64,000 nucleotides of DNA, taken from assembly GCA_963823665.1 (NCBI GenBank), contig CAWGMQ010000010.1:1280001-1344000 (forward strand), in the 5' to 3' direction. The notes beneath the pieces were generated by a model. The model saw nothing but the letters and a program-made list of their open reading frames with translations. It searched no databases and was not told where the DNA came from. The translations under genes and the position numbers were made by a program. Below are positions 41,884 to 60,737 of this stretch, piece by piece. Numbering within the stretch: the stretch's first letter is position 1; every line of letters starts with the position of its first letter. The DNA is from an uncultured Planctomycetota bacterium (GTDB lineage Bacteria > Planctomycetota > Planctomycetia > Isosphaerales > Isosphaeraceae).

Positions 41884-41940
41884 ATTTAACGGCAACGCGA
41901 ACACTATCCCACGCCCGTCGCCTCCTTCCGCGAACGCCCC

Positions 41941-44196: not shown

Positions 44197-45514
44197 CGAT
44201 CGACCCTCCAGATTGGTCGTTCCGCGGTCGGGGCAACGGGACCGCCGCAAAAGATACGCACTCTTGTGCCGATGCTACCTCGTCTTGCGACGATACCATT
44301 TGCAGCACTTGAACTTGCGTCGAATCGTCCGCTCCGTTTTCCCGGGTTAAGGGAGCAATTCGGGTAGCACCCTCGGTTCCGGTCGCCGCTAGGGCTTCTG
44401 CTTCCGGCCGCGGCTTGGGAGCCAGGTCCGGAAGTGCCTGCACAGCACCGTCGATATCGAACCTGGACGCTTTGGCGTAGATACCGATGGTCAGCTTCGG
44501 GTCAGAGTGCCGGGCAAGCACCTGGCAAGTCTTTACCGACGCTCCGGACGCGACGATATACGAGATGTAGCAACCCCGCAAGCTGTGAAAATCAACCACC
44601 CCGGAATCGGTCTCGTAGGGAATGCTGGCAGCTTCCAGGTCGATCCGCAGCATTTCGGCCGTCCGATTCGTCAACGTCCCGAAGATCGCCTCTCCTGGTG
44701 CCTTCTGGGCCAGCCACGGGCGAACTTGATCGGCCAGAGCTTGCGCCAACGGCTGCACAGCTTCCTGTCCGTTCTTCGTGTAAGCAGCCCGGCAGCGAAC
44801 GGTAGGAGGCGACGCGACAAGTTTGAAGTCCTCGGGTGTCAGGGATCGCAGTTCATCGGCTCTGAACCCGGTTCCGAGTGCCAAGCTGTACAGCACGGCG
44901 CGCTCAGGGCCTTCGATACCTCGGAAGATTGGCCCGCGCTCCGCTGCCCGCACCACCCGTGCGGCTTCCTCTGGAGTCATAGCCCGGCGAACCCGCCGCC
45001 GGTCGCCCTCCGAACTCGTGGTGGCGAGGTGTGCAAGGTGGTGATCTCGAGCCCGTCCATCCTTCCAGAGCCATCGGCTGAACGCCTTGACCGAGCGGAT
45101 GTAGTGATTGATGGTTTCGGTACTTAGCCCTTCACTACGAAGTACCACGGTCGCGTCAAGGGCCTTCGAGAGCGACAAGTCAGATATCCGCCGGCTCTTG
45201 GTCAGCTCGAGCATCCGGCTGACTTGCGTCGTCGTCGTGAGCGCGTGTCCGCTGTTGCTGCCTTTGGCTGCCAGGTATCGCCCATAATCCGCGGCGTGCT
45301 CCGCCAGGGGCTTGGCCTCGTGCTTCTGGTAGGCAAGATCCCGCGGGTCGATCTGTCCGTTCTTGATCTTGCGGGCTTCCGTCTCGAGCTTGACCGCCAG
45401 CTCTTGTGACGCTCGCTTGTCGGTGTAGCCCTTTTTCTTCCGCCGGTCGCCGTTGGCGTCGAAGTAAAGAATCGTGTAGCAGTCTGCGCCCTTGGCCTTG
45501 AAAACCGATGCCAT
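44138..45514 (-). CDS. int: Tyrosine integrase; the ORF reads through the left att site
   Basis: Catalytic set GFRADE, TKNG, FHSLR, ARHS, IGIY; LAATGTEG tail. Confidence 0.95.
   Translation of the reverse strand: MASVFKAKGADCYTILYFDANGDRRKKKGYTDKRASQELAVKLETEARKIKNGQIDPRDLAYQKHEAKPLAEHAADYGRYLAAKGSNSGHALTTTTQVSRMLELTKSRRISDLSLSKALDATVVLRSEGLSTETINHYIRSVKAFSRWLWKDGRARDHHLAHLATTSSEGDRRRVRRAMTPEEAARVVRAAERGPIFRGIEGPERAVLYSLALGTGFRADELRSLTPEDFKLVASPPTVRCRAAYTKNGQEAVQPLAQALADQVRPWLAQKAPGEAIFGTLTNRTAEMLRIDLEAASIPYETDSGVVDFHSLRGCYISYIVASGASVKTCQVLARHSDPKLTIGIYAKASRFDIDGAVQALPDLAPKPRPEAEALAATGTEGATRIAPLTRENGADDSTQVQVLQMVSSQDEVASAQECVSFAAVPLPRPRNDQSGGSIDVAPQAEAVSPSSFAGRDP
44253..44270. repeat. Left att core
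   Basis: gatacgcactcttgtgcc versus gatacgcattccagtgcc at 60139-60156. Confidence 0.65.
44350..44370. promoter_or_regulatory. Candidate integrase arm-type sites (left)
   Basis: agggagcaattcgggtagcac; a matching tandem motif occurs at 59970-59989. Confidence 0.55.
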
Positions 45515-45515
45515 G

Positions 45516-45719
45516 TCACTTCGCCTTTCTCGTGGTTGTGATCCGCAGGCCCAGTAATTCGGCCAGCTTGTCAAGATTCGCCAGCGATAGCCCAGCTTGC
45601 CCGTTGACGAATCGAGACATCGACGCCCCGTCAATGCGCGTCCGCCGGCAGATTTCGTAGTGCGTCAAACCTGATTGCTTGACCGCTTCCCGGATTTGGT
45701 CAGTCAACGTATCGCTCAT
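45516..45719 (-). CDS. XRE-family HTH regulator
   Basis: SGLTHYEICRRTRIDGASMSRFVNG..LSLANLDKLAELLGL; ends 1 nt before the int start. Confidence 0.85.
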   Translation of the reverse strand: MSDTLTDQIREAVKQSGLTHYEICRRTRIDGASMSRFVNGQAGLSLANLDKLAELLGLRITTTRKAK

Positions 45720-46298
45720 CTCAGCACCATCCACATCGCGCCAGCCACTCCCACCAGTAGCGACAACAGCGTCAGGTCAACCCCCACGTCGATGATTGCC
45801 AGGGTTGCACACTTCAGAATTCGCATTTCCGCCCCCTCTCGTTTCGTTATTCTCACTGCCATGATGGAAGTCTATGCTTTGCTTGTTTGAAAATCAACGG
45901 TGCAGCGATGGAATTCCGCCCGATTTTTCGGACTCCTTCCAGATCGGTTAGAATGTGCACGTGATTATACTATCATACATAGTGAGCGTACACGTGTACT
46001 CCCCCGTAAACGGGCATTTCTTGCCACTAAGTGCACACCATTTCGCCACCCCCTTAGAGCGCAAGGGGGTCGCGCAATTGGCTTGGCATCCGCCCTCCAA
46101 TCGGCGAAACTGACCACCATGAAAGCGCTCAAAGGGTCGGCGGTTTTGCTGCCATCGTCGGCAGTATGATCTTCTACGCGTGGCTGCGCCGCGGCATCCG
46201 TGGCTCTGGCTTGGGATTTTCGCCCCGGCGCCGCAGGTAAAGCGCCCGCCTCAACCAGCTCGAGCGCGGGCACCTCGACCCTTGCTTTTCTAAGGCAC

Positions 46299-46790
46299 TC
46301 AATCGGCCGATGGATCGAACATCGATGCCGGCTTGCCCAGAGCCTTAGCAATCTTGGAAATCGTAGCGTGCGATGGGCTGTGCTTTCCGGTTTCAAGTCG
46401 GCTGATGTGGCTTTGAAGCAACCCCGCCTTCTGTGCAAGCTGCGCCTGCGTTAGACCGGCGGCTTGACGCTCCTTGGCGATCCGCTTGCTGATGAATGAA
46501 ATCCACGCCAAGAGCCCCGACTTCGGCGAATTCGGCTCCGATGGGCAGTCCATCTTTCGCGAACCTGATGGCGCCTGTTCCAGGATTTCGCGCATCGTCA
46601 CGACGCAGCTTTCAAATTCCTCAGGATCTGCGGTCGGCAGTACCTTGACCAACTCGAAAAGATCGTCCCTGTCATTCTGGTTGAGACGCTGCACGCGATC
46701 CAACACGATCGCGACGGCCATCGTCAAAGCCTCATGGCTAAGATTGGACTGCGCAGAATCTAGTGGTCCGTGAAGCTCCTTGGTAGGCAT
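46299..46790 (-). CDS. XRE-HTH antitoxin (HigA-like)
   Basis: RQAAGLTQAQLAQKAGLLQSHISRLETGKHSP; lies downstream of the toxin. Confidence 0.8.
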   Translation of the reverse strand: MPTKELHGPLDSAQSNLSHEALTMAVAIVLDRVQRLNQNDRDDLFELVKVLPTADPEEFESCVVTMREILEQAPSGSRKMDCPSEPNSPKSGLLAWISFISKRIAKERQAAGLTQAQLAQKAGLLQSHISRLETGKHSPSHATISKIAKALGKPASMFDPSAD

Positions 46791-46845
46791 GCTATCCCTT
46801 CCGAATTCAATATAATCGAATAATCTTGCGTGGGGCTCGCGCGGG

Positions 46846-47259
46846 TCACGCCGCCGAATAGCCGCCATTTCGATAGTTTCTGGCCCTCCTTCGCATCCGA
46901 ATCTTCGCACCGTTCGGAGTCGGTCCGTCATTCTGTTTCTTGATCCCGCCCAACACGACGATGATGGTTCTGTGCTTGTCGAGCAGAAAGAATATGCGGA
47001 CGTTCATCCCTCCCAAGATACCGCCCTTGTCACGTAGCTCGAAGTAGTCTTCGATTGCACGGATGTCGGCGGTAACGCTATGTGAAGGATCATTTTCCGT
47101 AGCCAACTCCTTGAATTGGAGTGCCAAGTGGTGATATTGGGCTCGGTTCACGAATCCCATTACTTCGTGGTACCCCTCGTTGAGAATCCGGACGCTCCAC
47201 CGATAGCCAGGCGGCGGTCCGCCCCCCTGCGTCACGCCAACCTTGACCTCTTTCGCCAT
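46846..47259 (-). CDS. RelE/HigB-like (Gp49-type) toxin
   Basis: YFELRDKGG..NVRIFF..IIVVLGGIKKQ pattern; toxin-first gene order. Confidence 0.75.
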   Translation of the reverse strand: MAKEVKVGVTQGGGPPPGYRWSVRILNEGYHEVMGFVNRAQYHHLALQFKELATENDPSHSVTADIRAIEDYFELRDKGGILGGMNVRIFFLLDKHRTIIVVLGGIKKQNDGPTPNGAKIRMRRRARNYRNGGYSAA

Positions 47260-47292
47260 ATTAATCGTCCTTTATCCCCAGGCGCCTTGAGG

Positions 47293-47320
47293 ATTATACA
47301 ACAATCATAGTGCGCTTCAA
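47293..47320 (-). promoter_or_regulatory. Sigma-70-like promoter of the TA operon
   Basis: Minus strand TTGAAG-16 nt-TATAAT; ttatacaac occurs twice nearby (possible operator). Confidence 0.6.
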
Positions 47321-47753
47321 CAGTGTTCGCTACATATTATACAACGCAACGGTGCTACTCAAGATTCTCGCCTGTTCGTTGTGCGCCCTTGAATTCGAGC
47401 CCGATGGCGAGCCGCCTACCCCTTCTCGTGCCCCGTCACGTAAACCCCGGTCCGCGCGAGCTTCGATATCGGCGCGCTCTCGGTCGCCCGTCCAATCCCT
47501 CGACCGAAGCGCCGCGGGCTTCACAGCGAGGCGTCTAGGCGATGGAATCCACGTCATCGTCGCTTGCTCTTGGCTGCGTGCCGGAATGGTAACGGTTTCG
47601 CCGTTCCACAATCTGGGCAGACTGCCCGCGGCCCGTTGTCGCTGGCCCGGATCACAGTCACCGCCCCGCACTGGCACGGCGACCCGGAATCGCGCCGCGG
47701 GTCCACCGTCCCTGTCGCCCTCTGGCCGCTCCGGCGTTTCCCCAGGATGATCT

Positions 47754-48032
47754 TCACCGCCGGCGCTCCCATCCCCGAATCCAAAAGCAAACTGCCAGGT
47801 TTATGAGGCACACCGCCGCGCTTCCGATGAAAAACGTCCACGCGATCGGTCCCTGTCCGTTGCGCTGTTGCAGCCAGAGCCCCGCCAGTGCCATTGCCAT
47901 TGAAGCCGTTGACGTCATTTCAAGCACCAATCCAATCCGGTCGCTCCGGCCCGCGGTTTCGGGCAGCGCTTCGACCAGTTCGTCCACTTTCGCCTGGCTG
48001 TTGCTCTCTGAACTGGTTTCGATAATCCGCAT
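47754..48032 (-). CDS. Small two-TM membrane protein
   Basis: Two hydrophobic helices and a basic C-terminus; GAGGAGG RBS. Confidence 0.55.
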   Translation of the reverse strand: MRIIETSSESNSQAKVDELVEALPETAGRSDRIGLVLEMTSTASMAMALAGLWLQQRNGQGPIAWTFFIGSAAVCLINLAVCFWIRGWERRR

Positions 48033-48064
48033 GGAAAGCACCTCCTCGTGGTTGTGAACAAACC

Positions 48065-48364
48065 TCAGTCTGGAATCATCCCAGGATATGGCGGGCATGC
48101 CACCGGCTCCGTGGGGGCATCGCACTCCCCGCCCCCGCACCGTTGGCATTTCTTCACCACCGGCGTAGGCAGTCCGAGCGCCGCGGCCGCTTCCTGCACC
48201 TCGGCATCCGTGGTCGTGATTTCGCCCTTCGCTCCGTGCCACTGCTTGACGAACAATGCCGCGTAAGCAGCCTGGCTCCAATGGTCGCCCAGCTCGTGGA
48301 CGAGTCGCTGAAAGTGCGGCTGATGCGCGACTGCCTTTTCGATTTCAGGTAGCGTGATCGTCAT
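48065..48364 (-). CDS. Hypothetical protein with C-terminal Cys cluster
   Basis: CQRCGGGEC; ATGA overlap with the upstream gene. Confidence 0.6.
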   Translation of the reverse strand: MTITLPEIEKAVAHQPHFQRLVHELGDHWSQAAYAALFVKQWHGAKGEITTTDAEVQEAAAALGLPTPVVKKCQRCGGGECDAPTEPVACPPYPGMIPD

Positions 48365-48762
48365 GATTCAACCCTCTCAAACCTGCCGATTGGGCAACGC
48401 TCGGTTGAGGCCCATAACTTCAGAGACCCGCAGCCACAAATTCGACATCGTTGCGAATCGGCGTTGTAATGCTCGCATGCCTGGCATAACGCTAAACGTT
48501 GCTCATGGATTTCTGGCGAGACTTTGACTGCATGGCCAGTCAGAACAGCACCCGCCACTCGAGCGGCTGCGCCCAGAGCGTTTACGGCCATCTGCGCCAT
48601 GGTCGGAAACTCCTGCGGTGCACCCGTGGCGATCTCGAGAACGATTTCCCGATAGCGACCGCGCTGCCATTCGTCCGGATTCTCATCCGAGCAAAGCCAG
48701 CGATAACGCTCGTGTTTTGTTTTTCCGACCACGATGTCTAGGGCTTCGGGTAGTGTCATCAT
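48361..48762 (-). CDS. DUF6171-like Cys-rich protein
   Basis: RLALCQACEHY..RCRICGC..LKLW...CPIGRF; ATGA-coupled start. Confidence 0.65.
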   Translation of the reverse strand: MMTLPEALDIVVGKTKHERYRWLCSDENPDEWQRGRYREIVLEIATGAPQEFPTMAQMAVNALGAAARVAGAVLTGHAVKVSPEIHEQRLALCQACEHYNADSQRCRICGCGSLKLWASTERCPIGRFERVES

Positions 48763-49583
48763 TGGGTCACCGTGACGCCAATAGTCGGTCCCGTGCAATT
48801 CCCATACACCGTGCAGAAACCACCGTCTCCAGCACCATTGGCGCAGCCGCTGCCAATCAAAAAACTTCCGGTTTCGTTTACTGGGTAGCAGGAGCTTTGT
48901 TCCGGCCCCACCCCGGTCATATTGGTGGATATCTCGCTGCTGAAACTCGAGCCGCTCGTATCGGGGCACCCGTTCGAATCGGTTGGGTAATTGTGCGGAC
49001 AATACACGGACGCTCTATCAATGCTGGCGCTTATGCAGGGATTGTAGCTGTACTGTAATTCCACCGTTCCGCCCACGCATCCGCATGCCGCGCCATAGGT
49101 GTAATTGATGCTGCCGATGTAATTCAACGAGCTTCCCGTACCAACGATACTTAATGTTCCGTAGGGGTAAAGTGTGACTGCTCCGACAACGGCGTCGGTA
49201 AGTGTGAGTTGATCGGGGTACATTAACAGAAGGGCTTTGTTTGGTGACGCTGTGCTCCCTGTTACGGTAATGTGCTGTGTCGTCGGAGTCGTGAGATAGC
49301 CAGACGGCGCCGACATCGAAAAGTAATATGTGCCCGTGCTTGACACTTCCCAAACAAACTGGCCGCTCGAGTTAGTCGTCCCTGACGCAACGACGGTACC
49401 GCCTGAATTGTTTTGCTGGACAGTTATCGTGATCCCTGAGAATCCGCATATCTTTGTGCTGTCACACCACCATACCTGAACGGTGTGATTCGCACCGCAC
49501 CCACAACACGTCCCAATCGACCAGGCGCCGTAGGCGGCATAGAGTAGGCAGACGAGACCAATGATCAACAGGTAGACCATCAT
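48759..49583 (-). CDS. Cys/Gly/Ser/Thr-rich membrane-anchored or secreted protein
   Basis: N-terminal TM, TCCGCG, prealbumin-like GTTNSSGQF..GTYYFSMSAPSGY, many Cys; visibly lower GC. Confidence 0.7.
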   Translation of the reverse strand: MMVYLLIIGLVCLLYAAYGAWSIGTCCGCGANHTVQVWWCDSTKICGFSGITITVQQNNSGGTVVASGTTNSSGQFVWEVSSTGTYYFSMSAPSGYLTTPTTQHITVTGSTASPNKALLLMYPDQLTLTDAVVGAVTLYPYGTLSIVGTGSSLNYIGSINYTYGAACGCVGGTVELQYSYNPCISASIDRASVYCPHNYPTDSNGCPDTSGSSFSSEISTNMTGVGPEQSSCYPVNETGSFLIGSGCANGAGDGGFCTVYGNCTGPTIGVTVTQ

Positions 49584-49801
49584 CGCCCCTGCTGCTCCTG
49601 CTGGCCAGTCTGGTAGATGCCAGCGCCCTTCACCTGATCGGTCGGCACCACGAGAACGTTGCCGGCCTTCAGTTCCACGAGACAGAGAATCGGGTGATCG
49701 GGTCCGCGGTCAAGAATTCCGAGCCAGAGCCCCGGCCCCTTGTCGGTGACCTCGACTGACCGCGGCGTGTTGAAGATGCCGTGTTGCGTGATCACTTCCA
49801 T
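49580..49801 (-). CDS. Hypothetical protein
   Basis: GAGG RBS; overlaps the next start. Confidence 0.55.
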   Translation of the reverse strand: MEVITQHGIFNTPRSVEVTDKGPGLWLGILDRGPDHPILCLVELKAGNVLVVPTDQVKGAGIYQTGQQEQQGR

Positions 49802-49827
49802 ACCTCAAATCCGGCCCGCCGTTCATT

Positions 49828-50088
49828 TCATTCCGATTCAAGCATATCCCTGACGTCTCCGATCAACGCGAGCGCTTCGGCGAGCACCGACTCTGCTTCC
49901 GTCGGACCCTCGTTCAGCCTCCGGCGGAGACGGTCGTTCTCAGCCTTCAGTGTCTCGTTTTCCGAAATGAGCTGGTTAATTGCAACCAGCGCCTTGCCCG
50001 GCTGCGTCGCGATTGCCCGAAACATCTCCTTGATCTCTCGCTCGCGCGACTTGCTCACGATGTCGGTCATCTTGGCGGGGATCACCAA
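49828..50088 (-). CDS. Small coiled-coil protein
   Basis: LISENETLKAENDRLRRRL; coupled to the upstream stop. Confidence 0.55.
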   Translation of the reverse strand: MVIPAKMTDIVSKSREREIKEMFRAIATQPGKALVAINQLISENETLKAENDRLRRRLNEGPTEAESVLAEALALIGDVRDMLESE

Positions 50089-50564
50089 TGTCCTCCTTCT
50101 CGCTCCCGCTGCCGCGCTGCGGCATCTTCTGCATAAGCCGCTTTCCGCTCGCGGTGTTCGACTGCTGAGTCCACCTTGTTCTGCGTGATCAAATAGCCAT
50201 AGATCGCTTCGAGCCTGGCTGTATCTCGTCTGAGCTCCGCAACGGACATGTTGAGCATCCCGGCAATCTTCCTGTCGAGCGCGTCAGTCCCCGCGATTTC
50301 GCCCGCTGCAAGCGCTCGTGCGATTGCTTGATCCGAGCCGGGGGTAACAATGCCCGCCCGGTCTCGCATGCGATCAAAGCGAGCTTTCGTTGCAGCCCTC
50401 TGGAGATTTACTTCGTATGTCGCGATTGCCTGTTTTTTCACCGGCTCAAGCGAGGTCAGAAGCGAGGCGACTTCGGCCATTGCTTCCGTTCGTTTCTGCT
50501 CAGCCACTTCCCGCGCGATGGTCATCATCTGCGCCGGAGTGAGTGCCGCCGTTCGATAGCTCAT
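50082..50564 (-). CDS. Helical hypothetical protein
   Basis: GGAGG RBS; ATGA overlap; operon position downstream of the capsid gene. Confidence 0.6.
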   Translation of the reverse strand: MSYRTAALTPAQMMTIAREVAEQKRTEAMAEVASLLTSLEPVKKQAIATYEVNLQRAATKARFDRMRDRAGIVTPGSDQAIARALAAGEIAGTDALDRKIAGMLNMSVAELRRDTARLEAIYGYLITQNKVDSAVEHRERKAAYAEDAAARQREREGGHW

Positions 50565-50743
50565 TTCCCCCTCCGTTGTGACTGGCGTAGAAAGGCCCCC
50601 AATGGCCCGATGGATTCCACGGTGCTATCGCTGGCCTCTTGACGCTCTTGCTCGAGCCGATGACGCTTCTCAGCTTCGCGCCGAGCCCAGCGCCTGTTTT
50701 CCTTCGGCCGCGTGTCAATTGCCCGGCAGAATTTGTTGTCCAT
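50561..50743 (-). CDS. Small basic hypothetical protein
   Basis: GAGG RBS right after the capsid stop. Confidence 0.5.
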   Translation of the reverse strand: MDNKFCRAIDTRPKENRRWARREAEKRHRLEQERQEASDSTVESIGPLGAFLRQSQRRGK

Positions 50744-50752
50744 TGGATCACC

Positions 50753-51976
50753 TCAACGCTGGGCAATCGTGACTGCCCACCCGACTGTTGAACCATCCGT
50801 CGTGGTAAGCGTGCTTGGCCAGATGCTGCGCCCATCCCCTCTAAGCTTGAGCCGCACCGCGACCTCGTCAGATAGGAAAAAGACGTCCTCCGAGTAGGAT
50901 CGCTCCATCACACCCTCGGGTAGCGCGATGATTCCAGTGTGCCCCTCATCGCGCGGCAGACTGATGTCGAACGACAGAGTGCTAAGATCGTTCTTCGTCA
51001 CCCTGCGAACACATAAGTGATATTGTGACCAGTCCGCCAAGACGAGATCCGCCGGAGTCCCAATGGCGGAGCAATTTTCGTTCACAATGCATGGCCTTCC
51101 CTTGATCAAAGGAAATTCATTCCCCGCCACCCCCTGCGGAAGGTAGATCGCTGATGGCCAATTCGCTGCCGACGCTACTTCATCGATGCTGCCCAGAGTC
51201 GCGTCCGTGCAAGACCAGATCGCGTTCCGCTTGCACGGCCCGTACAAACTTTTCCACATATTTGTGATATTGGTTTCGCTTATGGTGCCGCTGCTTTGCC
51301 CGCTGTCCTTTGCGATCTGCACAACCCCGGCCGCGGGCAGTCCGCTGCCTGGCACCACCACGCCGGAAGGCCCCGCGATAATCCCTTGGATCATGGCTTG
51401 CTCAAGCTGGAAACGGATTTCCGACTCGGCCGAATAATCCAAGAGAGGCATAATCAAATCCGTGTCCGCGAACAGGTCGCGAGACATGGGCGGAAATTGC
51501 ACGATCAATCGCGAGCAGGAAAAATTCACCCGCGCTGCCGATGGTTGCGATTGGAACTTCGATTGCGAAAGATCGGCCGTTTCTGACGTCGCCCAAACCC
51601 CCAGCACACCACCCCACCGGCTCCCGGCCGCTCTCGAAGATTCCCCGTAGACTGGCAACACAAAATCGCGCTGATTCACGGTGATGATTCGACAGCGCGC
51701 GAGCGGACCGTCAACCGTCCGGGCTTTGTCCCAAACTGCCGTTGCCCACTCGGGCTTGAGCGTGAAACCGTAGTCCTGTCCCTGATACCCGACACCGGTT
51801 CTGATTTGCAGGTCCTCAAGGTTCATCAAGCGTTCGGTCGAATCGAACGTCAGCAATGAACGCGCGGCCGTCGCTGCGAAAAAGCCGAATGGCGTAACGT
51901 CGTCCGCTGCGATCGGACGCAACATGGCTCGCGACTTGCGCGGTTTCGGCATTTCGATCGTAGTGCCGTGCAACAT
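50753..51976 (-). CDS. HK97-fold major capsid protein
   Basis: GFTLKPEW, ESSRAAGSRWGGV, LIKGRPCI..E.CSAIGTPADLVLADWSQY, SEDVFFLSDEVAVRLKLRGDG. Confidence 0.88.
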   Translation of the reverse strand: MLHGTTIEMPKPRKSRAMLRPIAADDVTPFGFFAATAARSLLTFDSTERLMNLEDLQIRTGVGYQGQDYGFTLKPEWATAVWDKARTVDGPLARCRIITVNQRDFVLPVYGESSRAAGSRWGGVLGVWATSETADLSQSKFQSQPSAARVNFSCSRLIVQFPPMSRDLFADTDLIMPLLDYSAESEIRFQLEQAMIQGIIAGPSGVVVPGSGLPAAGVVQIAKDSGQSSGTISETNITNMWKSLYGPCKRNAIWSCTDATLGSIDEVASAANWPSAIYLPQGVAGNEFPLIKGRPCIVNENCSAIGTPADLVLADWSQYHLCVRRVTKNDLSTLSFDISLPRDEGHTGIIALPEGVMERSYSEDVFFLSDEVAVRLKLRGDGRSIWPSTLTTTDGSTVGWAVTIAQR

Positions 51977-51978
51977 CG

Positions 51979-52413: not shown

Positions 52414-52578
52414 GTAGCACCCCTTTCGATGGTCGAATACTAGAGCGAGCCGCGATATCGAATCAAGTGAAGGCGCGAGCAATTCCACTTAATGCTTATG
52501 GAATTTTTGGACACACGCGAGCCGTTTTCGCCGTGTTTTTCGTGGCTCGGATGTGTGATTCGTCCAGAAAATCGCCCC

Positions 52579-52827
52579 CTAAACTGGCGGATTATTGGAC
52601 GTTCCATCTCGTTCAGCGAGCAATTCGGCGAGCCGCCGGAAACGTTCGTCGGTCTTGAACGTCCCCGCGTTCAGCCAGTTATAGAGCGTCGATCGGCTGA
52701 TTCCCGCAGTGTCGGCAGCTTCGTTGATGCTCAAGCCGCGGCCGAATGCGAAACCGAGAAGCAACATCGTCTCGCCGTCGCAAGCCGATGGTCTGCCGCG
52801 TCTGTTTTTCGTTTTCGCTTGTGGCAT
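52579..52827 (-). CDS. Small HTH protein (terminase small-subunit-like N-terminus)
   Basis: RGRPS...GLSINEAADTAGISRSTLYNWL. Confidence 0.65.
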   Translation of the reverse strand: MPQAKTKNRRGRPSACDGETMLLLGFAFGRGLSINEAADTAGISRSTLYNWLNAGTFKTDERFRRLAELLAERDGTSNNPPV

Positions 52828-52839
52828 GGCGTCGCGCCC

Positions 52840-53181
52840 TTACATGATCTTCGTGAACATCGGATGGTCGTCATCGGCTTGCATGAACATCCGCCATCTA
52901 TACTCTGCTTCTATGGCCCTTATGAGCTTTCCCATAGCGTCGGGATCATCGATGGGTATACGTTCGGCTCGACTGTCACACTTGGCCCAGCACACGTCGC
53001 AGCACTCGCAGAAGCAAATGATTTGACCTTCTATCACTTTGCTCGAGCACTTCGCGACCGATCCGCAGACTGCGCAATAATCCTTTGCTGGTTTGACCGG
53101 CCGTGCCGGCGCGGGTTCGGGTTCGGGCGCACGCGGTTTAGGCGCCCCTTTGAGTCTGTGCCGCCATGTCAGGTTATTCAT
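52840..53181 (-). CDS. Cys-rich zinc-finger hypothetical protein
   Basis: CAVC..CFCECCDVC. Confidence 0.55.
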   Translation of the reverse strand: MNNLTWRHRLKGAPKPRAPEPEPAPARPVKPAKDYCAVCGSVAKCSSKVIEGQIICFCECCDVCWAKCDSRAERIPIDDPDAMGKLIRAIEAEYRWRMFMQADDDHPMFTKIM

Positions 53182-53184
53182 GGT

Positions 53185-54027
53185 TCAATCCTCATCCCAG
53201 AGTGAAGGGTCACGAAGGTTGCCCACCGCGGCGGGGTTGTGCCGGACGGCATAAGGGGGAATGAAACGCGGGTCTAGTTCGTCGTCGTCGTCGTTTTCTT
53301 GCTCGAGCTCGCGCTTACGCTCCGCCACCTTCTCGACCTCGAGCGCTCTGGCTTCCCAGGGTTGCAGATTCGTTGTGTCGGCCGTGATTGTCATGGCCAT
53401 CCATCGTTGACGTCCAAGCCAGAGCGCGAGGCTCACACTCATAACGCAGTCGTCATGATCCGAATTGAACGCTTCGGCAGAAGTGTTGCCGGTTTTGGCG
53501 CTCACCCGGATTTTAAAATCCCTCAATTCTTTTTTGAGCAATCTAGCGTGCTCCTGATGCTTTCCGTTCCGCATCGGGCATATCTTTACCCGACGATTGC
53601 CGAGTGCTTCGGCCAATGCGCTCACGAGCTCAACCTTGGCGACGTTCCACATGCGCCGGCCGCGTGGCGCCGATGTTGCGCCCCCGGTTATGTTGATCCC
53701 GTAGACTCGGATGTGCTCGTATGGCGCGAATGCGGTAACGCACTGCTCAAACACCGCCGTTCCACAGCCGGACATATCGATCACCACAATGGGAGCCGGT
53801 CGAATGTCGCTTCTGGTTGCGATGCGTACCAGGTCTTTTACCACGGCGCCGTACTCTGTTTTTAACGGCCAGCGACGTAGGCCCACGATCTGAAACGAAT
53901 AGATGGAATTCCCCCGGCTATCGCGTTCGGGAAGGCCCTGCGCGTCCACGGCCAGGCTGCGAGCCATTACAGACAACGCGGAAAAGTCCCGGAACTGGCC
54001 TAAGTCCAGCGTGACAAAGTTGTCCAC
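53185..54027 (-). CDS. Terminase large subunit, stand-alone RNase H-like nuclease domain
   Basis: TLDLGQFRDFSA, VIDMSGCG, DHDDCVMSVSLA; own RBS (GAGGGG) and GTG start. Confidence 0.8.
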   Translation of the reverse strand: MDNFVTLDLGQFRDFSALSVMARSLAVDAQGLPERDSRGNSIYSFQIVGLRRWPLKTEYGAVVKDLVRIATRSDIRPAPIVVIDMSGCGTAVFEQCVTAFAPYEHIRVYGINITGGATSAPRGRRMWNVAKVELVSALAEALGNRRVKICPMRNGKHQEHARLLKKELRDFKIRVSAKTGNTSAEAFNSDHDDCVMSVSLALWLGRQRWMAMTITADTTNLQPWEARALEVEKVAERKRELEQENDDDDELDPRFIPPYAVRHNPAAVGNLRDPSLWDED

Positions 54028-54029
54028 GA

Positions 54030-54797
54030 TTAGAGCCCCTCGAGTGCTGTGAGTAATGGCATGCCAGGCGGATACTCGGTTAAAGCCTCAATCGCATCAT
54101 CACCTATTAATTGGTCGCCGTCCTCTATAAAAGCGTTTTCATGTTCCTGTCTGTACAGTGCAGGCCCCAGGATCTTGAGCTCATCGTCCAGGAATCCCGG
54201 CTTTACACGATGCGGATAGTCGACGCGTCGGGCGGAGATGCGTTCCCAGGTCTGCTCCTGATCTTCCCAGCATGCGTAGAAGAACCCCCGCCGGCCCGCG
54301 GGTGTGGAGAGCAGGATTAGGTCGCCGTCTGTCTCCGCCAGCATCGGACGCACCGCAGCCAGCATGCCCTCATCTATACGTGATGCTTCGTCTAATATAA
54401 CCAAGTGTGGAGTGTACCCGCGTGCAGTAGCCGGATCGCCTGGCAAGGCAACCAGCTTGCTACCGTTGGCGAAGTGCAGTTCAGTTCTGAGTTGCTTGAC
54501 CAGCTCAACGGGCTTGGTGCGCTCGTAATACTGAACAGTGCGGTCAAACAGCAACAGCGATTGCCTTTCCCCGATGCTAGTCAGGAGACATTCCGAGCCC
54601 GCGGTGAAGCAAACACGGTGCAAGGCTTTCACCGCAGATACGCTGGTTTTCCCAAGTTGCCGGCCGCAAAGCATAAGCAATCGTTTGCTTGTCGACTGCA
54701 AAGCTTGGCGCTGCCATAAATCTGGTTCAAGCCCCGTCGCCGCGCGAAACAAGTATGTCGGGTCCAGTGCCGCCTTCAACAATGCTTTCCTGTCCAT
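54030..54797 (-). CDS. Terminase large subunit, stand-alone ATPase domain
   Basis: PDLWQ, Walker A CGRQLGKT, ARG, Walker B VILDE, coupling motif LSTP, YRQE. Confidence 0.88.
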   Translation of the reverse strand: MDRKALLKAALDPTYLFRAATGLEPDLWQRQALQSTSKRLLMLCGRQLGKTSVSAVKALHRVCFTAGSECLLTSIGERQSLLLFDRTVQYYERTKPVELVKQLRTELHFANGSKLVALPGDPATARGYTPHLVILDEASRIDEGMLAAVRPMLAETDGDLILLSTPAGRRGFFYACWEDQEQTWERISARRVDYPHRVKPGFLDDELKILGPALYRQEHENAFIEDGDQLIGDDAIEALTEYPPGMPLLTALEGL

Positions 54798-55389
54798 CGG
54801 TGCTACCCTCCGAGTGCTCGAGTTGCTCCATCTGGTCGATAACCGCGGCGAGGCGATAACGGTCTTCTGGTGTCTTCACAGCGTCAAGGAGGGCCGCGCC
54901 TTGCAACCCGAACATCGCGACGCTGATGTTCTGGGTAGACCCGCCGATCTTGTTGATGGTCTTGTGCTCTCGCAGTTTGCCCCAGTAGCGATCCATCAAC
55001 AGTTGGATGGCCTTCAGCCGGTCGCCGTGCGTCTCGCCCTCGAGAGCGATATGGGCGAGCTCTTTGACCGCGTCGGCGAGCAGGGTTGGGTGCTCGTCAT
55101 CGATCAGTTGCTTGAACCGGCGTTTGATCCTGACACCTGCTGCGATCCGCGCCGGATCGGGGGTCGCGCAGCTATTGCCCACAGCGAACATGCCGTTCTC
55201 ACCCCGGCCTTCACCCGTGCCGGCCCAGCTCGAGGCGTCCAGAGCGGTCTGCGGGTCCTGCTGTTCGGAGAACACCCGCGGCGCAGGGCGGGCGGGCTTG
55301 GCTGGCTTGGCGCCCTTGACCTTGCGCGGGCCCCGGTACCCTCGAGCGGTACCATGCCAGCGAGGCAACGGCGAGGTGTCAGTGCTCAT
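54727..55389 (-). CDS. Putative terminase small subunit
   Basis: RGENGMFAVGN and LKAIQLLMDRYWGK motifs; directly upstream of the terminase ATPase. Confidence 0.6.
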   Translation of the reverse strand: MSTDTSPLPRWHGTARGYRGPRKVKGAKPAKPARPAPRVFSEQQDPQTALDASSWAGTGEGRGENGMFAVGNSCATPDPARIAAGVRIKRRFKQLIDDEHPTLLADAVKELAHIALEGETHGDRLKAIQLLMDRYWGKLREHKTINKIGGSTQNISVAMFGLQGAALLDAVKTPEDRYRLAAVIDQMEQLEHSEGSTDGQESIVEGGTGPDILVSRGDGA

Positions 55390-55404
55390 GGTGGTTGTCC
55401 CCGG

Positions 55405-55761
55405 TTAGTTCCTGGCGCACAGCATGGCCGTTCCTTGTGCTATCCGACGCGCTTCCTCGACCTTCTCCCGAATCTGGTCGATGCGTTGTTCCTGCGCAGC
55501 GAGCGCTTGCTCCCGCGCGACAACGCGACGTTCGTTCTCAGTCTGGGCCCGTATCAGCTCAGTCGAGCCGCACGCGATGGCGCGAACCTCGAGCCCCAGG
55601 GCCCGTACATCGGCCGCCACTCTTTGCACATCCGCAGCCAGTTCGGCTGTCTCGTGCTCAACGTCGGCCAAAGCACACTCAGCCGCGTAGAGTGCCTCAG
55701 ACGCCCTGCGCTGGTCATCTCTCAGGTCGATCAACACGTCTGCCCAGTTCACTGCCGTCAT
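55405..55761 (-). CDS. Coiled-coil hypothetical protein
   Basis: Ala/Glu-rich heptads; GAGAGGG RBS. Confidence 0.6.
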   Translation of the reverse strand: MTAVNWADVLIDLRDDQRRASEALYAAECALADVEHETAELAADVQRVAADVRALGLEVRAIACGSTELIRAQTENERRVVAREQALAAQEQRIDQIREKVEEARRIAQGTAMLCARN

Positions 55762-55928
55762 GGTGCCCTCTCTCGTTGGGTAAGGGGTCATTTATGGGAA
55801 ACCGGTCCAAGTGCTACTTGGGATGCTGCCGTATAACCGGAATCGTCACAAGTGTCACTGCGTGAATTACTTGCGTCTGTCGGCATCGGATTCTCTCTCC
55901 GATGTTGATTGGTTATCTGTACGATCGA

Positions 55929-56201
55929 TCAGTCATGCCGCTCGCGGATCGCGCTGGCCAGGTCGTGAATCGCGCTGGCGATGGTTGTCGCCGCTTCCTT
56001 GATGGCCTCGCCATGAGCTTCCATTGCGTTCGGGCGAGTCCTCGGATCGGAGCGGAATGAAACACCGAACCAGACAGCCCGTGCCAGGTCATCAAGCGTG
56101 TCGACGATGTTTGCGGCCTCGCCGTTGGCGTCGCTCACATTCGGCGAGGTAAGCGCCGCGGCGAGGGTGTCTGCCAGTCTGTCACTCTTGGATGCGTTCA
56201 T
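55929..56201 (-). CDS. Hypothetical protein
   Basis: AAGGAG RBS; SPNVSDANGEAANIVD. Confidence 0.6.
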   Translation of the reverse strand: MNASKSDRLADTLAAALTSPNVSDANGEAANIVDTLDDLARAVWFGVSFRSDPRTRPNAMEAHGEAIKEAATTIASAIHDLASAIRERHD

Positions 56202-56639
56202 GCGTTAAACTCCTTGCATGCATGACGGTATGGGCCGACGATGGTGAGCCCGGCTGAACGGCCAGAGACTGGCCTTCCACGCTGATCTGCTCAAAAGCCT
56301 GCTGCTCATGGTCAGGCCACGGGATACCATCTGCCTCGAGGCGATTGGCGAGTTCACCCCATCGTTGCCGGCGCTCAATCGGCCATCCAGCGAGATCAGA
56401 AGGTCTCGACCACTTCAAGCCTACAAAACCTACGGAACCGGTTTTGTCTGGTTTCGTAGGTAGCGGGGGGTATCTATCTATAAGAATTTCACTGGCGCAG
56501 AAATACACTCACTCACACCATCATTGATGTACTCTTTAGGGTCTGAATTTTCTGTGTACCTATGGGGTGGATTGCCTACGAAACCTACAAAAGCATCCAC
56601 TGGCTTGATCTGCTGCTTGAATGCATTCAAGTATTTCAT
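56182..56639 (-). CDS. Hypothetical protein(s) downstream of the replication gene, probably one frameshifted gene
   Basis: ATGA-coupled start MKYLNAF; FVGFVG/TKPDK repeats; C-terminal WGELANRLEADG in the second frame. Confidence 0.45.
56420..56592. repeat. Iteron-like 9-mer array (candidate replication origin)
   Basis: cctac(a/g)aaa-type pairs at 56420-56439 and 56575-56592, an inverted pair at 56440-56460, and AT-rich sequence between. Confidence 0.55.
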
Positions 56640-58588
56640 GCTTGCGACCACACTTCCTTGGATGGCAGAACCGGATTGATCCACACTTTCTTGGATGGTC
56701 TGCCACCGAACGCGCTCTCTGACGGAACCTCGACCACCTTCACCCATCCGCGGTCTTCAAGGATGCCGATGGCGGTTTCGACGTCATCGACCATCCGCAG
56801 GCCTGACCATCCCTTCTGCGCGACCTCCCGCGGAGTGAACGGATTTGGAAGCGATCCCTTGATCCGCTCGGATAGCGCGACCGCGATCGAGATGTCGCCG
56901 TCCGCGCAGGCCATGTACACCCGCCTGGCGTGCGCCTCGAGCAGGTCACACCATGCCGCGGCCGCTTGAGCTGCCTCGAGGGACACCGGTCCTATCTCCC
57001 ATGCCCTGCATGTCTCGACCAAATGGAAGATCAGTGCCAGCGAGGCCATGAGCGAGCCATATTTCGATAGGTGGTTCTTCATCAGGTCTGAGAGAGCACC
57101 ACCCCGGAGTCGCTGTTGCAGTTCTGTATACCACTGGTTGAAGAACGCTTGAGCGTCATCGGCGAAATTGACGTAGGCCAAGCCGCTATCCTGATCGACC
57201 TTGCATCCCTTATCCGCTGCGTTCATCTGGTCGATCGCCTTGAAGACGTCATAGGCTTCATTCTTCGCCGCGGTATCTGGCCACTGGTCGACATGCACGT
57301 AATCGTCCGGCGGATCCGGATACACCATCACCTGGAAGCGGGGAACGAAACCGTCCGCTTCCTCTCCACTGACGGTGCGTTTCATGTACTGCGCGAGCGG
57401 TCCGGGCTGGATGGTTCCGAGCACCGCCAGACACGCCGCTTCAATGTGCGTCGTGCCGCGCTGGATTCGATCGAATGTGAAAGAGCCGTTTCCATTCCAG
57501 CACTCAAGCAGGAAACCCCGGTCCGATTGGTGACCTTCCCGCTCGAGGCTCTTGAGCAGTCCAAGCAGTTCGTCCCGAAAGACCGTCAACCCGTTCGGAT
57601 TCTCCGCCATGAGCTCGCCAAGCTTCTCGACCGTGAAATCGTTCACGAGATACCGCCGGCACTTCGGCTGATCTTCCTGACTGGTGGCCATCGCATCGAC
57701 CGCGAGCCGCTTTAGTTCGTCCTCCGTCGTCCCCTCCACCTTCGCCGCTTTCTTCAGCGTGCTCTTGGCTGCGTCCTTGCGTGCCGCGGCAACAAGCTGG
57801 CGAGCGGTGTAATCGTTCATCTGTTGGGCGAAGGCGTCCATCGCATCGGCCACGAGTCGCTTGAGCGGACGCATGACGGCCTCGACTGCCGGGGTCTTCA
57901 AGAATCCGGGTGGCCCGACGATGATTCCCCAGAGATTCACCACCACCACCCAGTCATCGTAGCGCTTCGGTCTTATCGCCACCTTCCGGCCGATCACCCC
58001 GCTGAGAGCGACAATCAGCGTCGCCGCAACGTACTCAAACGGAAAACAGCCACGCGTTGCGATATCGCGCAGCCACCCGCGGAAAACCTCTGGCACCATC
58101 TCCGGCACGATGGCAGGGACCGGCTCGAGGTTTGCCGTTATCGGGCGGGGTGGCAGAAGGAAGATAGGGCTTCGAGCCGAAACCTCTTTATCCCTCCATT
58201 TGGTCCGCTTGGCCGCTTCATTCACGAAGTCGTCGCCGTCCACATACTCGCCATCGGCGACCTTCTCGTTAAACCACGCTTTGAGTTGATCGCCGTTGCC
58301 AGCGATTCCGAACGCTTCGCGCAGGTTCAAAGTCCCCACCTGGCTGGCGAAGTAATGGTTGCCGTTCCCTTCGCACCACACCGCCGCCGCGGTCGCCGAT
58401 TCTGGTTCGCTATAGGCAAAGATGATCCGCCGCCGGTCCGCGAACTTCGCAAGCTGGCCCTTCGCCGTGAAGACCTCGATCGCCGGAATGCCGAGCTCCC
58501 GCACCGCGGCTGCAACCCGCAGTTCAATGCACCCGAAAACAATGTCGCCGGGCTTGCCATTCGGGACATGGCCGTTTGATTCGCTCAT
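56636..58588 (-). CDS. DUF3987/YfjI-family replication protein (helicase-like)
   Basis: NLWGIIVGPPGFLKTP, NDFTVEKL, FRDEL, DRIQRG, GTIQPG, DGFVPRF. Confidence 0.88.
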   Translation of the reverse strand: MSESNGHVPNGKPGDIVFGCIELRVAAAVRELGIPAIEVFTAKGQLAKFADRRRIIFAYSEPESATAAAVWCEGNGNHYFASQVGTLNLREAFGIAGNGDQLKAWFNEKVADGEYVDGDDFVNEAAKRTKWRDKEVSARSPIFLLPPRPITANLEPVPAIVPEMVPEVFRGWLRDIATRGCFPFEYVAATLIVALSGVIGRKVAIRPKRYDDWVVVVNLWGIIVGPPGFLKTPAVEAVMRPLKRLVADAMDAFAQQMNDYTARQLVAAARKDAAKSTLKKAAKVEGTTEDELKRLAVDAMATSQEDQPKCRRYLVNDFTVEKLGELMAENPNGLTVFRDELLGLLKSLEREGHQSDRGFLLECWNGNGSFTFDRIQRGTTHIEAACLAVLGTIQPGPLAQYMKRTVSGEEADGFVPRFQVMVYPDPPDDYVHVDQWPDTAAKNEAYDVFKAIDQMNAADKGCKVDQDSGLAYVNFADDAQAFFNQWYTELQQRLRGGALSDLMKNHLSKYGSLMASLALIFHLVETCRAWEIGPVSLEAAQAAAAWCDLLEAHARRVYMACADGDISIAVALSERIKGSLPNPFTPREVAQKGWSGLRMVDDVETAIGILEDRGWVKVVEVPSESAFGGRPSKKVWINPVLPSKEVWSQA

Positions 58589-58791
58589 GGGCCCGCCCTC
58601 CGTGGTTGCCGATGGTCGATTACCTCAGTTGGGTTTCCGCAGACCGGACATTCCCAAATCTGCACCTGTCCGCGCACCCCCCGGAGTCGAAGCCGCTCCC
58701 AACATCCGCAGTAGCTTTGTGGCTCCTCGAGTGCACCGTCATCGTCGGTAGGAAATGCCAGGTCACGCTGGCCGCGCAGGGGCTCGCTCAT
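58585..58791 (-). CDS. Small zinc-ribbon protein
   Basis: YCGC..WECPVCG; ATGA overlaps at both ends. Confidence 0.55.
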   Translation of the reverse strand: MSEPLRGQRDLAFPTDDDGALEEPQSYCGCWERLRLRGVRGQVQIWECPVCGNPTEVIDHRQPRRAGP

Positions 58792-59083
58792 GATGGCTCG
58801 CCCCTTTCCTGTTCGGCCCACTCGCGAACAATGCGCGGTGACCATAGGCGCGCCGGCCGACACTTCTATCCGGCCGCGGAAACTCGCCGGTCGATATCCG
58901 CTCCTCAATCAGCCGCCTGGATAGCGGGATGACGGCGAGAATCTGATCCCAACCCCAGAGAAGCATTTCCGAAGGGGGGATTGATCGAACTTTGGGCAAT
59001 TTGCTAGGATCGGGTTCCTGGATAACCTGATCGTTCGCGAGGCCCGGAGTCGCCAGCTCCGGGTCCTTGCTTGCGCACTGCAC
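58788..59083 (-). CDS. AlpA-family regulator, frameshift near 58850
   Basis: LSRRLIEERISTGEFPRPD..GRR, continuing as WSPRIVREWAEQ in the adjacent frame. Confidence 0.7.
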
Positions 59084-59086
59084 CGA

Positions 59087-59293
59087 TCAGGCCCCCTTGC
59101 TCATGGGAGCCATGGCGCGGGCGATATCGCCCGCGGAATAGCGTGGTGGCACACCCGGCTGCAAATCGATGGCGACGGCGCCGATCGCAGCGAGGCGATA
59201 GAGCTTTGTAGGGCTTAGTCCCGGATGGCGCCGAGTTGCTTCGGCTGCCGAAATGAAATCGGCTTGGGCGGGTTCAAGTGTCGCTGTCGACAT
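59087..59293 (-). CDS. Small excisionase-like HTH protein
   Basis: FISAAEATRRHPGLSPTKLYRLA..PRYSAGDI. Confidence 0.6.
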   Translation of the reverse strand: MSTATLEPAQADFISAAEATRRHPGLSPTKLYRLAAIGAVAIDLQPGVPPRYSAGDIARAMAPMSKGA

Positions 59294-59453
59294 TGCGGTT
59301 TCCCGGAAGGATGCATAGGCGCGATTCACCAGAGCACCTGGTTGAAACCAGTGCTCACGAGTGAGTCGACTTCCTATGCGGTCCGTCTCCGGCCGCAGTC
59401 AGACTCTGACATTCAGTCTTCGATCATAGAATGACTACTAAGCCATTTCAAGA

Positions 59454-59861
59454 TCACATCGGTTGTTTCGGCCAGTACGGCAATTTATCTCGCAAATGCC
59501 ATATCGCGTGGCGGATTTCAAACTGTGGATTATCTGGTCGGCATGAATGGCATGTCGCGTCCGCTCTTTCCATCAGCCAATTGAAGGCGCCCTCGAAGTC
59601 CTCATCGGAGAATTGCCGAGCCGTCCGCCCACTCGTCTGGTTCAAGGTCGGATTGCGCTTGTACCTCATCAACCAAATCGAAATTGTGCGGTACGCTTTC
59701 GCAAAACGCGGTTCATGCTTCTGGAAGTCCTCGTCGCTGGAAGATTGAAGCAGGCCCATCAAGACCCACCAGCTCAATCCCCAGGGTCGCCGCTTCACTC
59801 TACCGAGCAATCGTGACGCTTCGTCTTGAATCAGTGCCTGCACCCGCTTCCGATCGATCAT
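59454..59861 (-). CDS. Hypothetical protein
   Basis: 135-aa ORF, GGAG RBS, co-oriented with the element. Confidence 0.55.
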   Translation of the reverse strand: MIDRKRVQALIQDEASRLLGRVKRRPWGLSWWVLMGLLQSSSDEDFQKHEPRFAKAYRTISIWLMRYKRNPTLNQTSGRTARQFSDEDFEGAFNWLMERADATCHSCRPDNPQFEIRHAIWHLRDKLPYWPKQPM

Positions 59862-59867
59862 CTCAGC

Positions 59868-59978
59868 TCACTCCGTTTTGGCCGCGTTCACCACCGCCAG
59901 AATCGCCCGACGCTGCTCCGCAGACAGCCGTCCCCAGGATTCCCGCACCAGCTCGAAGTCCGAATCGTCAGGGAGCAT
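59868..59978 (-). CDS. 36-aa helical ORF, in frame with the right att core
   Basis: MLPDDSDFELVRESWGRLSAEQRRAILAVVNAAKTE; the frame is open from 60146. Confidence 0.6.
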   Translation of the reverse strand: MLPDDSDFELVRESWGRLSAEQRRAILAVVNAAKTE

Positions 59979-59989
59979 TTTGGGAGCAC
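59970..59989. promoter_or_regulatory. Candidate integrase arm-type sites (right)
   Basis: agggagcattttgggagcac. Confidence 0.55.
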
Positions 59990-60138
59990 TTGAGCCACGC
60001 TCCGACGCGTTTCCATGCGTGTCTGTGCGTGATAATACCGCACTGCCAGGCTCGGAAACAACGGAGAATGAAGGCTTCCCGCGTGTCCCCGCGTTTCCGT
60101 GCGCGTCAGTGCGTTCTGACGTGAAAACGTCAAGATCT

Positions 60139-60156
60139 GATACGCATTCCAGTGCC
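60139..60156. repeat. Right att core
   Basis: gatacgcattccagtgcc. Confidence 0.65.
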
Positions 60157-60159
60157 AGT

Positions 60160-60645: not shown

Positions 60646-60737
60646 GAAGCTTCTCGACGGCGTTCGGATCTCCCTGCTCGATCGCCGAAAACATCCGCGT
60701 GCCTTCGCTCAACAATTCGATACGCTGTTACTTCACC

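Follow-up and report, generated by a model that had tools for sequence, protein, structure and literature searches.

The subject of this work is a 15.9-kb integrative element in the genome of an uncultured planctomycete of the family Isosphaeraceae (G000; 16.5 Mb, 92% complete). It lies within a 64-kb stretch of DNA that was analysed as a whole (the window; G000:C10:1280001-1344000). The element encodes a large terminase (TerL) in two genes and an HK97-type capsid protein, and no portal was found in it. It is inserted site-specifically, its integrase and replicase genes are intact, both halves of the terminase carry their motifs, and the same plan recurs in relatives; structure modelling supports the HK97 fold of the capsid protein. 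Taken together, sequence and models suggest, with moderate confidence on our part, a satellite that resembles phage-inducible chromosomal islands (PICIs), which would package its own DNA through the portal of a helper phage and whose capsid protein would co-assemble with helper heads.

The element is bounded by two copies of an 8-bp core, GATACGCA, found at 44253 and 60139 only on both strands of the window, with a core-to-core spacing of 15,886 bp. The left and right ends agree at 15 of 18 bases, a match too weak for the repeat finders run on the window, which did not pick up this pair of attachment (att) sites. At both ends of the element, short inverted repeats stand on either side of the core, in keeping with the sites of tyrosine recombinases. 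An empty site is found in G429, the sole other genome of the same genus, where the left flank (78% identity, with homology up to window 44269), a single core copy, the right flank (86% identity to window 60139-60181) and pyrG lie back to back. The element is therefore a precise insertion, with pyrG on one side and the gene of a planctomycete extracellular protein on the other. The insertion is intergenic, not in a tRNA gene (no tRNA genes were found in the window), and GC content is 58.6% within the element versus 62.2% outside. Every recognisable gene lies on the minus strand. The preliminary description of this DNA as an att-bounded, one-strand element of about 15.9 kb holds. Three low-share DNA sequencing runs gave scattered 99% contigs and no joint, and are uninformative on circles.

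By its motifs and predicted fold, the large terminase is an intact two-gene enzyme. The ATPase half matches phrog_7579 and PF03237 and retains what we take to be the Q motif, Walker A, Walker B and coupling motif. The nuclease half matches phrog_27743 and retains an acidic triad; its model (pLDDT 72) has an RNase H fold, with terminase nucleases as top matches, including those of G20c, RB49 and T4. PDB sequence searches gave a weak match for the nuclease (E 0.37) and none for the capsid protein. The nuclease gene starts two bases past the ATPase stop, in another frame and behind a Shine-Dalgarno-like site (GAGGGG). These features lead us to reject the split as an assembly artefact, as do its recurrence in RefSeq plasmids and the length of the ATPase homologs listed, only 2 of 120 of which exceed 400 amino acids (aa) in a search that admitted 140-447 aa. 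Modelled as a complex, ATPase and nuclease scored 0.84, against 0.00 for the best control, although halves of a split gene may pass through likeness to solved one-chain TerLs; the mark for this score is reached by 116 of 157 solved pairs and 2 of 215 mismatched pairs. The runs have at least 97% of contacts in common, with partner pLDDT of at least 82, and place the C-terminal tail of the ATPase (about 224-255) on the nuclease. This tail is predicted to bind the nuclease and so restore a full TerL.

A likely small terminase (TerS) is encoded at 54727-55389. Its support is modest: Atlas likeness to viral and DUF5681 clusters (0.93-0.94), and a match to a profile built from the TerS proteins of six relatives (E 5e-4, with 32 open reading frames, ORFs, scanned). 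Several terS-like genes had been proposed; just this one looks like a TerS. An 82-aa helix-turn-helix (HTH) ORF at 52579-52827 matches the start of a TerS profile.

The search for a portal was negative. Portal, protease, connector, tail and holin genes were absent from the 32 ORFs by Pfam and PHROGs, from 27 of the 32 by NCBIfam, and from 141 of 147 six-frame stretches of at least 60 aa by PHROGs (the six omitted stretches are named genes). The Pfam, PHROGs, NCBIfam and six-frame scans likewise returned no HNH gene, prohead protease, head-tail connector or adaptor, and no prophage traits (portal, tail or lysis genes, or remnants of them) were found in the element. Neither a panel of portals collected in this analysis nor seven portal profiles detected a portal; among the profiles, the home-made HK97 one lends weak support, as it contained its own control and also matched an antisense frame of that control, and the SPP1-type control was likewise contained in its own profile. 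PHROGs gave no match for the capsid protein itself, and its silence on portals is therefore not proof alone. Length provides a further line of evidence. Complete portals in viral loci are about 450 aa or longer, the longest unassigned coding-strand frame in the element is 316 codons (the SdrD_B-domain, Cys-rich cargo gene), and no unassigned frame is long enough for a portal. Where related phages carry the portal, the element has a nuclease-capsid gap of 1,208 bp with three small ORFs. The preliminary description, in which no ORF resembles a portal, prohead protease, head-tail connector or tail and the unassigned ORFs look too short for a portal, thus holds. That the small ORFs conceal a miniature or highly diverged portal, or that DNA enters the shell independently of one, we regard as highly improbable: the frame lengths speak against it, as does the lack of conservation of the nuclease-capsid ORFs across relatives, even though several small ORFs have no match of any kind, PHROGs missed the capsid protein, and portal-less HK97 mini genomes have been reported, though without terminases (PMC13669383; this and the other satellite literature is cited here from the available portions of each source).

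The capsid protein exceeds the cut-offs of PF05065 and TIGR01554, and its model (pLDDT 79) matches the HK97 capsids of gene transfer agents (GTAs), T5 and other phages ahead of encapsulins. Two of its properties bear on how it may act. Firstly, 69 residues precede the conserved Gly, versus 134-159 in three distant homologs. Secondly, it is only 24-30% identical to the prophage capsids of the class. The available text on Ccm of SaPIbov5, the PICI capsid protein studied best, describes co-assembly with helper capsid around the portal, Ccm being insufficient for capsids alone (PMC8569155). We lean to co-assembly with helper heads and redirection of head size, over shells of the element's own, because the N-terminus is short, no protease or scaffold was found, and the capsid and TerL modules assort freely. 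The version of the preliminary description, in which the satellite's own capsid protein builds whole small shells and only the portal at their base is stolen from the helper, seems unlikely, if worth keeping in view. The protein is full-length, well-folded and closest to GTA and phage capsids, and may be too distant from the class prophage capsids for mixed shells; moreover, element sizes cluster at 14-17 kb, and one relative (G442) has a prohead protease. Set against this, neither scaffold nor protease was found in the window, elements without this capsid have similar sizes (G429b, 15.3 kb), and Ccm alone forms no capsids (PMC8569155).

The plan of the element is shared. Among 121 genomes of the order, the capsid protein was matched in six, and five att-bounded Isosphaeraceae elements carry this capsid family together with TerL and no portal that could be seen: the window element (15.9 kb), G429a (17.4 kb), G445 (14.0 kb), G442 (15.3 kb) and G429c (15.5 kb). 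Att repeats at tRNA genes bound the last four of these, and also G429b (15.3 kb), G429b2 (15.6 kb), G444 (9.5 kb) and a second G000 element (15.2 kb). G429a, G445 and G442 repeat the order TerS, ATPase, nuclease, small ORFs, capsid, which is the recurrence that the preliminary description had proposed to seek; the ORFs in the nuclease-capsid gap show no conservation across relatives, and G442 additionally has the prohead protease. No portal was found in relatives in 139 of 263 listed frames, in 147 of 161 frames of another set, or in all frames of at least 25 aa in a third scan, and the closest relatives show neither a portal nor the scar of a deletion. Both outcomes that would have refuted the preliminary description, a portal among the small ORFs and close relatives with portal or tail genes at a definable deletion, failed to appear.

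Around this plan, modules vary. G429c and G473a (whose contig ends inside the capsid gene) combine the same capsid family with a one-chain TerL that is unrelated to the split TerL and occupies the same slot; TerL has therefore been swapped while the portal stayed absent. G444 and G429b have a split TerL and no capsid match, and the element on G000:C6 has the capsid and no TerL match. G429b2 has a tail-completion gene and matches to neither TerL nor capsid; its replicase (64%) and cargo are the closest to those of the window element. The preliminary description saw an intermediate satellite architecture. A satellite-sized element with capsid and terminase and no portal is indeed what is found, but the occurrence of TerL without capsid (G444, G429b) and of capsid without TerL (G000:C6) makes the layout look like modules in varying combination, rather than a set stage between PICIs and capsid-forming PICIs (cf-PICIs).

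Some of these relatives were recorded in their own right. The element on G000:C6 (L186-L187) is 15.2 kb long, lies at tRNA-Pro and has primase, TerS-like and capsid genes, with no TerL seen. On G000:C8 (L188-L189) an integrative element at tRNA-Met shows no structural gene. In G429:C4 (L161, L020, L021), satellites of 15.3 and 15.6 kb stand in tandem at tRNA-Ile, one with a split TerL and the other with a tail-completion gp17 gene; the split-TerL member also has genes that we take to be protease-like and tape-measure protein (TMP)-like.

The split ATPases of the window, G445, G429a, G429b and G464 form, together with metagenome proteins, one clade (100/99 and 100/100 in trees that omit the long-branch rows G442, Rhodobacteraceae, Streptomyces, Rhodococcus and distant one-chain TerLs; 88 in a quick tree). 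G444 falls just outside. Duplicates were omitted from the trees and no root was inferred. The split TerLs of the five named sources are 34-71% identical, and for TerL and capsid the nonsynonymous divergence (pN 0.30-0.48) is far below the synonymous (pS), synonymous sites being saturated or nearly so, a pattern in keeping with purifying selection over a long time. That relatives share the plan speaks against recent decay of a prophage. An element that decayed from a prophage by shedding portal, protease and tail genes is, in our judgement, very improbable: the ends are precise att sites at five different targets within a narrow size range, the main genes are intact here, no remnant of a portal was found, and a long portal-less TerL clade stands apart from the clade of portal-bearing prophage TerLs. 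What decay would explain is that related TerL and capsid genes sit within full head modules in other Planctomycetia, that the relatives are frameshifted, and that their structural genes (TMP-like, protease, tail-completion gene) vary in a debris-like manner.

The split enzyme is also found beyond the family. Among 80 viral loci, the ATPase stands alone in 58, TerL is a single chain in 21 and one locus is cut; the split point is as in the element in 58 of the 80, and a separate nuclease gene accompanies 54 of the 58 stand-alone ATPases. A portal is present in 27 of the 58 split loci, mostly directly after the nuclease (labels were taken from cluster representatives, and the other 31 loci include cut contigs, so that absence is not shown). 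The two-gene TerL therefore serves portal-bearing phages, which rules out the idea that a split TerL marks satellites: a two-gene motor is a working phage design, and a sign neither of decay nor of satellites alone. Viral-contig scans with a single ATPase or a narrow nuclease alignment as query returned no loci. The one-chain TerLs of Thermus phage Riverbug and Meiothermus phage MMP17 are 40-42% identical to the element ATPase. These data also bear on the alternative that TerL halves and capsid mainly serve in defence, as decoys to block a helper's packaging and assembly, the element travelling by the helper motor or not at all. This we consider improbable, given that all catalytic motifs of both halves, and TerS, have been retained over deep divergence and that the same split enzyme works in portal-bearing phages; the oddity of a TerL without its portal, the toxin-antitoxin pair and the failure to find a resident helper would suit it.

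Small portal-less elements with a split TerL recur on other branches of the tree. The Salinibacter ruber plasmids pSR14 (L034), pSR11 (L035) and pSR31 (L041) carry primase, TerS-like, split TerL, TMP-like and ParA genes, with TMP matches for two of the three and two nuclease genes in tandem in pSR31. Neither capsid nor portal was seen in any of them, and the three resemble satellites in a plasmid state. In Streptomyces virginiae, a circle of 16.3 kb (L036) has an integrase, a primase-polymerase and a split TerL, and a 15.9-kb Rhodococcus circle (L037) an integrase, a one-chain TerL and a TMP; in neither is a portal or capsid annotated. On a Rhodobacteraceae plasmid, an island at tRNA-Thr (L040 7787-19895) carries a portal (phrog_145) and a split TerL, with no capsid seen, and is thus the mirror image of the window element. 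Five viral contigs of 9-10 kb (L086, L104, L115, L132, L139) have a replicase, capsid and split TerL, with a portal in three and none seen in two sister ones, which may be a second instance of portal loss; viral contig L105, like L132 and L139, also has these three genes, again with no portal seen.

Candidate helpers were sought among related genomes. Of the order's 121 genomes, 36 contain HK97-type portals, which were not found in G000, G429, G442, G444, G445 or G464; none of six split-TerL carriers against 36 of 121 genomes is too small a sample to interpret. The capsid profile matched in 50 of 401 genomes of the class. Of nine of these capsid loci that were scanned, six have a portal nearby and three have none among the scanned frames (46 of 91). 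Prophages in G543 and G765 combine a one-chain TerL (40% identical), a portal and a capsid (27-30% identical), and phages with compatible parts plausibly exist. These two prophages are not supported as the direct ancestor, since their TerLs group with one-chain enzymes in another clade. In nine genomes of one planctomycete genus (L200-L209, L212) the capsid profile matched once each; the one locus examined lies in a TerL-portal-capsid cluster and is possibly domesticated or GTA-like.

The life cycle of the proposed PICI-like satellite would most likely be, by analogy, a PICI's, with a single difference: the complete terminase comes from the element. Upon helper infection the element would (i) excise and replicate, (ii) select its own DNA through its TerS, (iii) dock its two-part TerL onto the helper portal and fill heads, and (iv) be completed by helper connectors and tails. 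Most likely, element capsid would co-assemble with helper capsid, portal and protease into small heads for about 15 kb. That packaging is of the headful type is a guess, made because of the family to which TerL belongs and because HNH is missing. Owning both TerS and TerL would free the element from matching the terminase of each helper.

Several observations weigh against this scheme. TerL normally co-evolves with its own portal, and the TerL family of the element is another than that of the one Isosphaeraceae HK97-type prophage examined (19% identity). No portal of families PF04860, PF05136 or phrog_64 was found anywhere in G000, or in four other long-contig carriers, and thus no resident helper. 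The split ATPase occurs in only 6 of 121 genomes of the order, the relatives' assemblies are rich in frameshifts, and the G442 nuclease appears damaged. In the window element, a single base near 58850 throws the AlpA-like gene out of frame relative to a 45%-identical homolog on G000:C8; this may be a long-read error or real damage. Lastly, Ccm retains an 87-residue delta domain according to the available text (PMC8569155); the short N-terminus is therefore no firm guide to how the element's capsid protein acts.

In order of transcription, the element begins with small HTH and AlpA-like genes, the DUF3987 replicase, three small ORFs and the likely TerS; TerL ATPase, TerL nuclease, three small ORFs, the capsid gene and four small ORFs follow; and the Cys-rich cargo pair, a RelE/XRE pair, an XRE gene and the integrase complete it. 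Coordinates are listed in the table below.

Table. Features of the element and its ends (window coordinates; ORF, open reading frame; HTH, helix-turn-helix)
Feature	Position	Strand	Evidence
Tyrosine integrase, open frame crosses attL	44138..45634	-	PF00589 E 5e-11, phrog_1 E 9e-27
attL crossover core, 8 bp	44253..44260	.	core search; empty site in G429
XRE-family HTH regulator	45516..45734	-	HTH_3/HTH_31
XRE-domain protein, likely HigA-type antitoxin	46299..46931	-	HTH_3 E 2e-14; role inferred from position
Gp49/RelE-like ORF, likely HigB-type toxin	46846..47259	-	PF05973 E 3e-4, under Pfam cut-off
Small ORFs common to sister elements: 47554-47841 (zinc-ribbon-like), 47754-48281, 48065-48364	47554..48364	-	
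Cys-rich cargo pair: 213-aa ORF (phrog_13558) and 274-aa SdrD_B-domain ORF	48361..49583	-	
Four small ORFs downstream of capsid gene (73, 86, 160, 60 aa)	49580..50743	-	
HK97-fold major capsid protein, 407 aa, short N-terminal region	50753..51976	-	PF05065, TIGR01554, fold
Three small ORFs (169 aa HTH, 82 aa HTH, 113 aa), nuclease-capsid gap	51979..53181	-	
TerL nuclease half, own start codon, catalytic Asp 8, 84, 193	53185..54027	-	
TerL ATPase half, Walker A/B and coupling motif	54030..54797	-	
Likely small terminase (DUF5681-like)	54727..55389	-	Atlas, relatives' profile; lies upstream of TerL, like its counterparts in relatives
Small ORFs (128 aa coiled coil, 90 aa, 108 aa)	55405..56508	-	
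DUF3987 replication protein	56636..58588	-	PF13148 E 2e-89, phrog_2373 helicase
AlpA-like gene, 80-aa HTH, 135-aa ORF, right end	58763..59861	-	
attR crossover core, 8 bp	60139..60146	.	core search; empty site in G429

The remainder of the earlier gene list (integrase, XRE, HK97 capsid, terminase halves, DUF3987) was recovered as proposed. Two entries are qualified: the toxin-antitoxin pair is present as an XRE gene and a Gp49/RelE-like ORF, the latter below the Pfam cut-off, and of the AlpA and HTH genes the HTH ones stand, XRE and HTH genes being present elsewhere in the element, whereas the frameshifted right-end gene (58763-59083) has no Pfam match and is presumably AlpA-like by resemblance. 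The 90-aa and 108-aa ORFs upstream of TerS are common to sister elements, the 73-aa ORF downstream of the capsid gene is conserved (80% in G429), and the 160-aa ORF has no usable match in Atlas. The Cys-rich cargo pair has homologs in G429 at 47-50% and is possibly virion or surface cargo; the SdrD_B gene and the phrog_13558 gene travel together in two satellites (window 48065-49583; L161 17365-19411). Outside the element, the attR-pyrG spacing (window 60147-60731) is about 590 bp here versus about 180 bp in G429, and holds what we take to be remnants of a Ser/Thr kinase and an extracytoplasmic function (ECF) sigma gene. To the left of the element (window 41500-41900) lie REP-like short repeats, with dozens of copies in related genomes.

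Among known satellites, the element is closest in plan to PICIs. For SatelliteFinder, a PICI (type A) has a core of integrase, regulator, primase-replicase, capsid and TerS and may contain neither portal nor connectors, and terL is listed as a marker of cf-PICIs (PMC10085698). The element shares with PICIs such as SaPIbov5 its integrase and att ends, candidate regulators (XRE and HTH genes), primase-replicase, capsid homolog and (with modest support) TerS, the lack of portal, connector, tail and holin, and a size of 10-20 kb (PMC10085698, PMC8569155). It differs in its planctomycete host, in being intergenic rather than in a tRNA gene (in this genome), and above all in its own two-gene TerL; known PICIs use the helper's. 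In correction of the preliminary description, a capsid without a portal is the ordinary PICI layout (PMC10085698), and the new part is an own large terminase without a portal, which does remain unusual. With cf-PICIs such as EcCIEDL933 the element has in common its own capsid, TerS and TerL, att ends and the lack of tails; cf-PICIs also encode portal, protease, connectors and HNH alongside both terminases (10.1101/2022.09.08.507074), none of which, the terminases aside, the element has, and its TerL is of a split Terminase_6N type.

Other systems share fewer features. The Mycolicibacterium EPIPs are small satellites with TerS and capsid and no portal, but are described with adaptor, stopper, scaffold, TMP and serine integrase and no TerL (PMC12822802); a TMP-like gene is present in some relatives of our element, as in EPIPs. 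PICI-like tycheposons and VEIMEs are integrative and self-replicating, with a terS or capsid gene; the available text describes no TerL for them, and VEIMEs have no capsid genes (10.1101/2020.12.28.424599; PMC9618062). The encapsulin-like HK97 mini genomes have a shell protein and no terminase (PMC13669383), unlike the element with its terminase and phage/GTA-like capsid fold, while Riverbug, MMP17 and uncultured tailed phages with a two-gene TerL encode portal, protease and tails. A TerL without a portal is likewise not described in the available text on haloarchaeal satellites (10.1101/2025.02.15.638363), EPIPs (PMC12822802), VEIMEs (PMC9618062), tycheposons (10.1101/2020.12.28.424599) or HK97 mini genomes (PMC13669383). 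In a literature search whose coverage took in few subscription journals and no supplements, neither a satellite with its own TerL and no portal nor a paper on Planctomycetota satellites was found. The element adds satellites to this phylum, and from the comparison several small 'plasmids' (Salinibacter, Streptomyces) would seem to be satellites in this style too. We put forward, as a rather unlikely reading, that there is a distinct satellite class with its own small heads and two-piece motor, which would steal only the portal (plus connector and tail) and dock its motor on foreign portals, the Isosphaeraceae elements being the capsid-bearing wing of a wide TerL-owning family that includes pSR11, pSR14 and pSR31. 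The satellites described so far divide into those that take the entire motor from a helper (PICI, P4 and PLE, which have no more than a TerS) and those with an entire head of their own (cf-PICI). If an element has both TerS and TerL and lacks a portal, its motor would have to engage a portal foreign to it, so that the specificity with which TerL and portal meet can be put to a direct test, and in its natural two-chain TerL pumping is separated from cutting.

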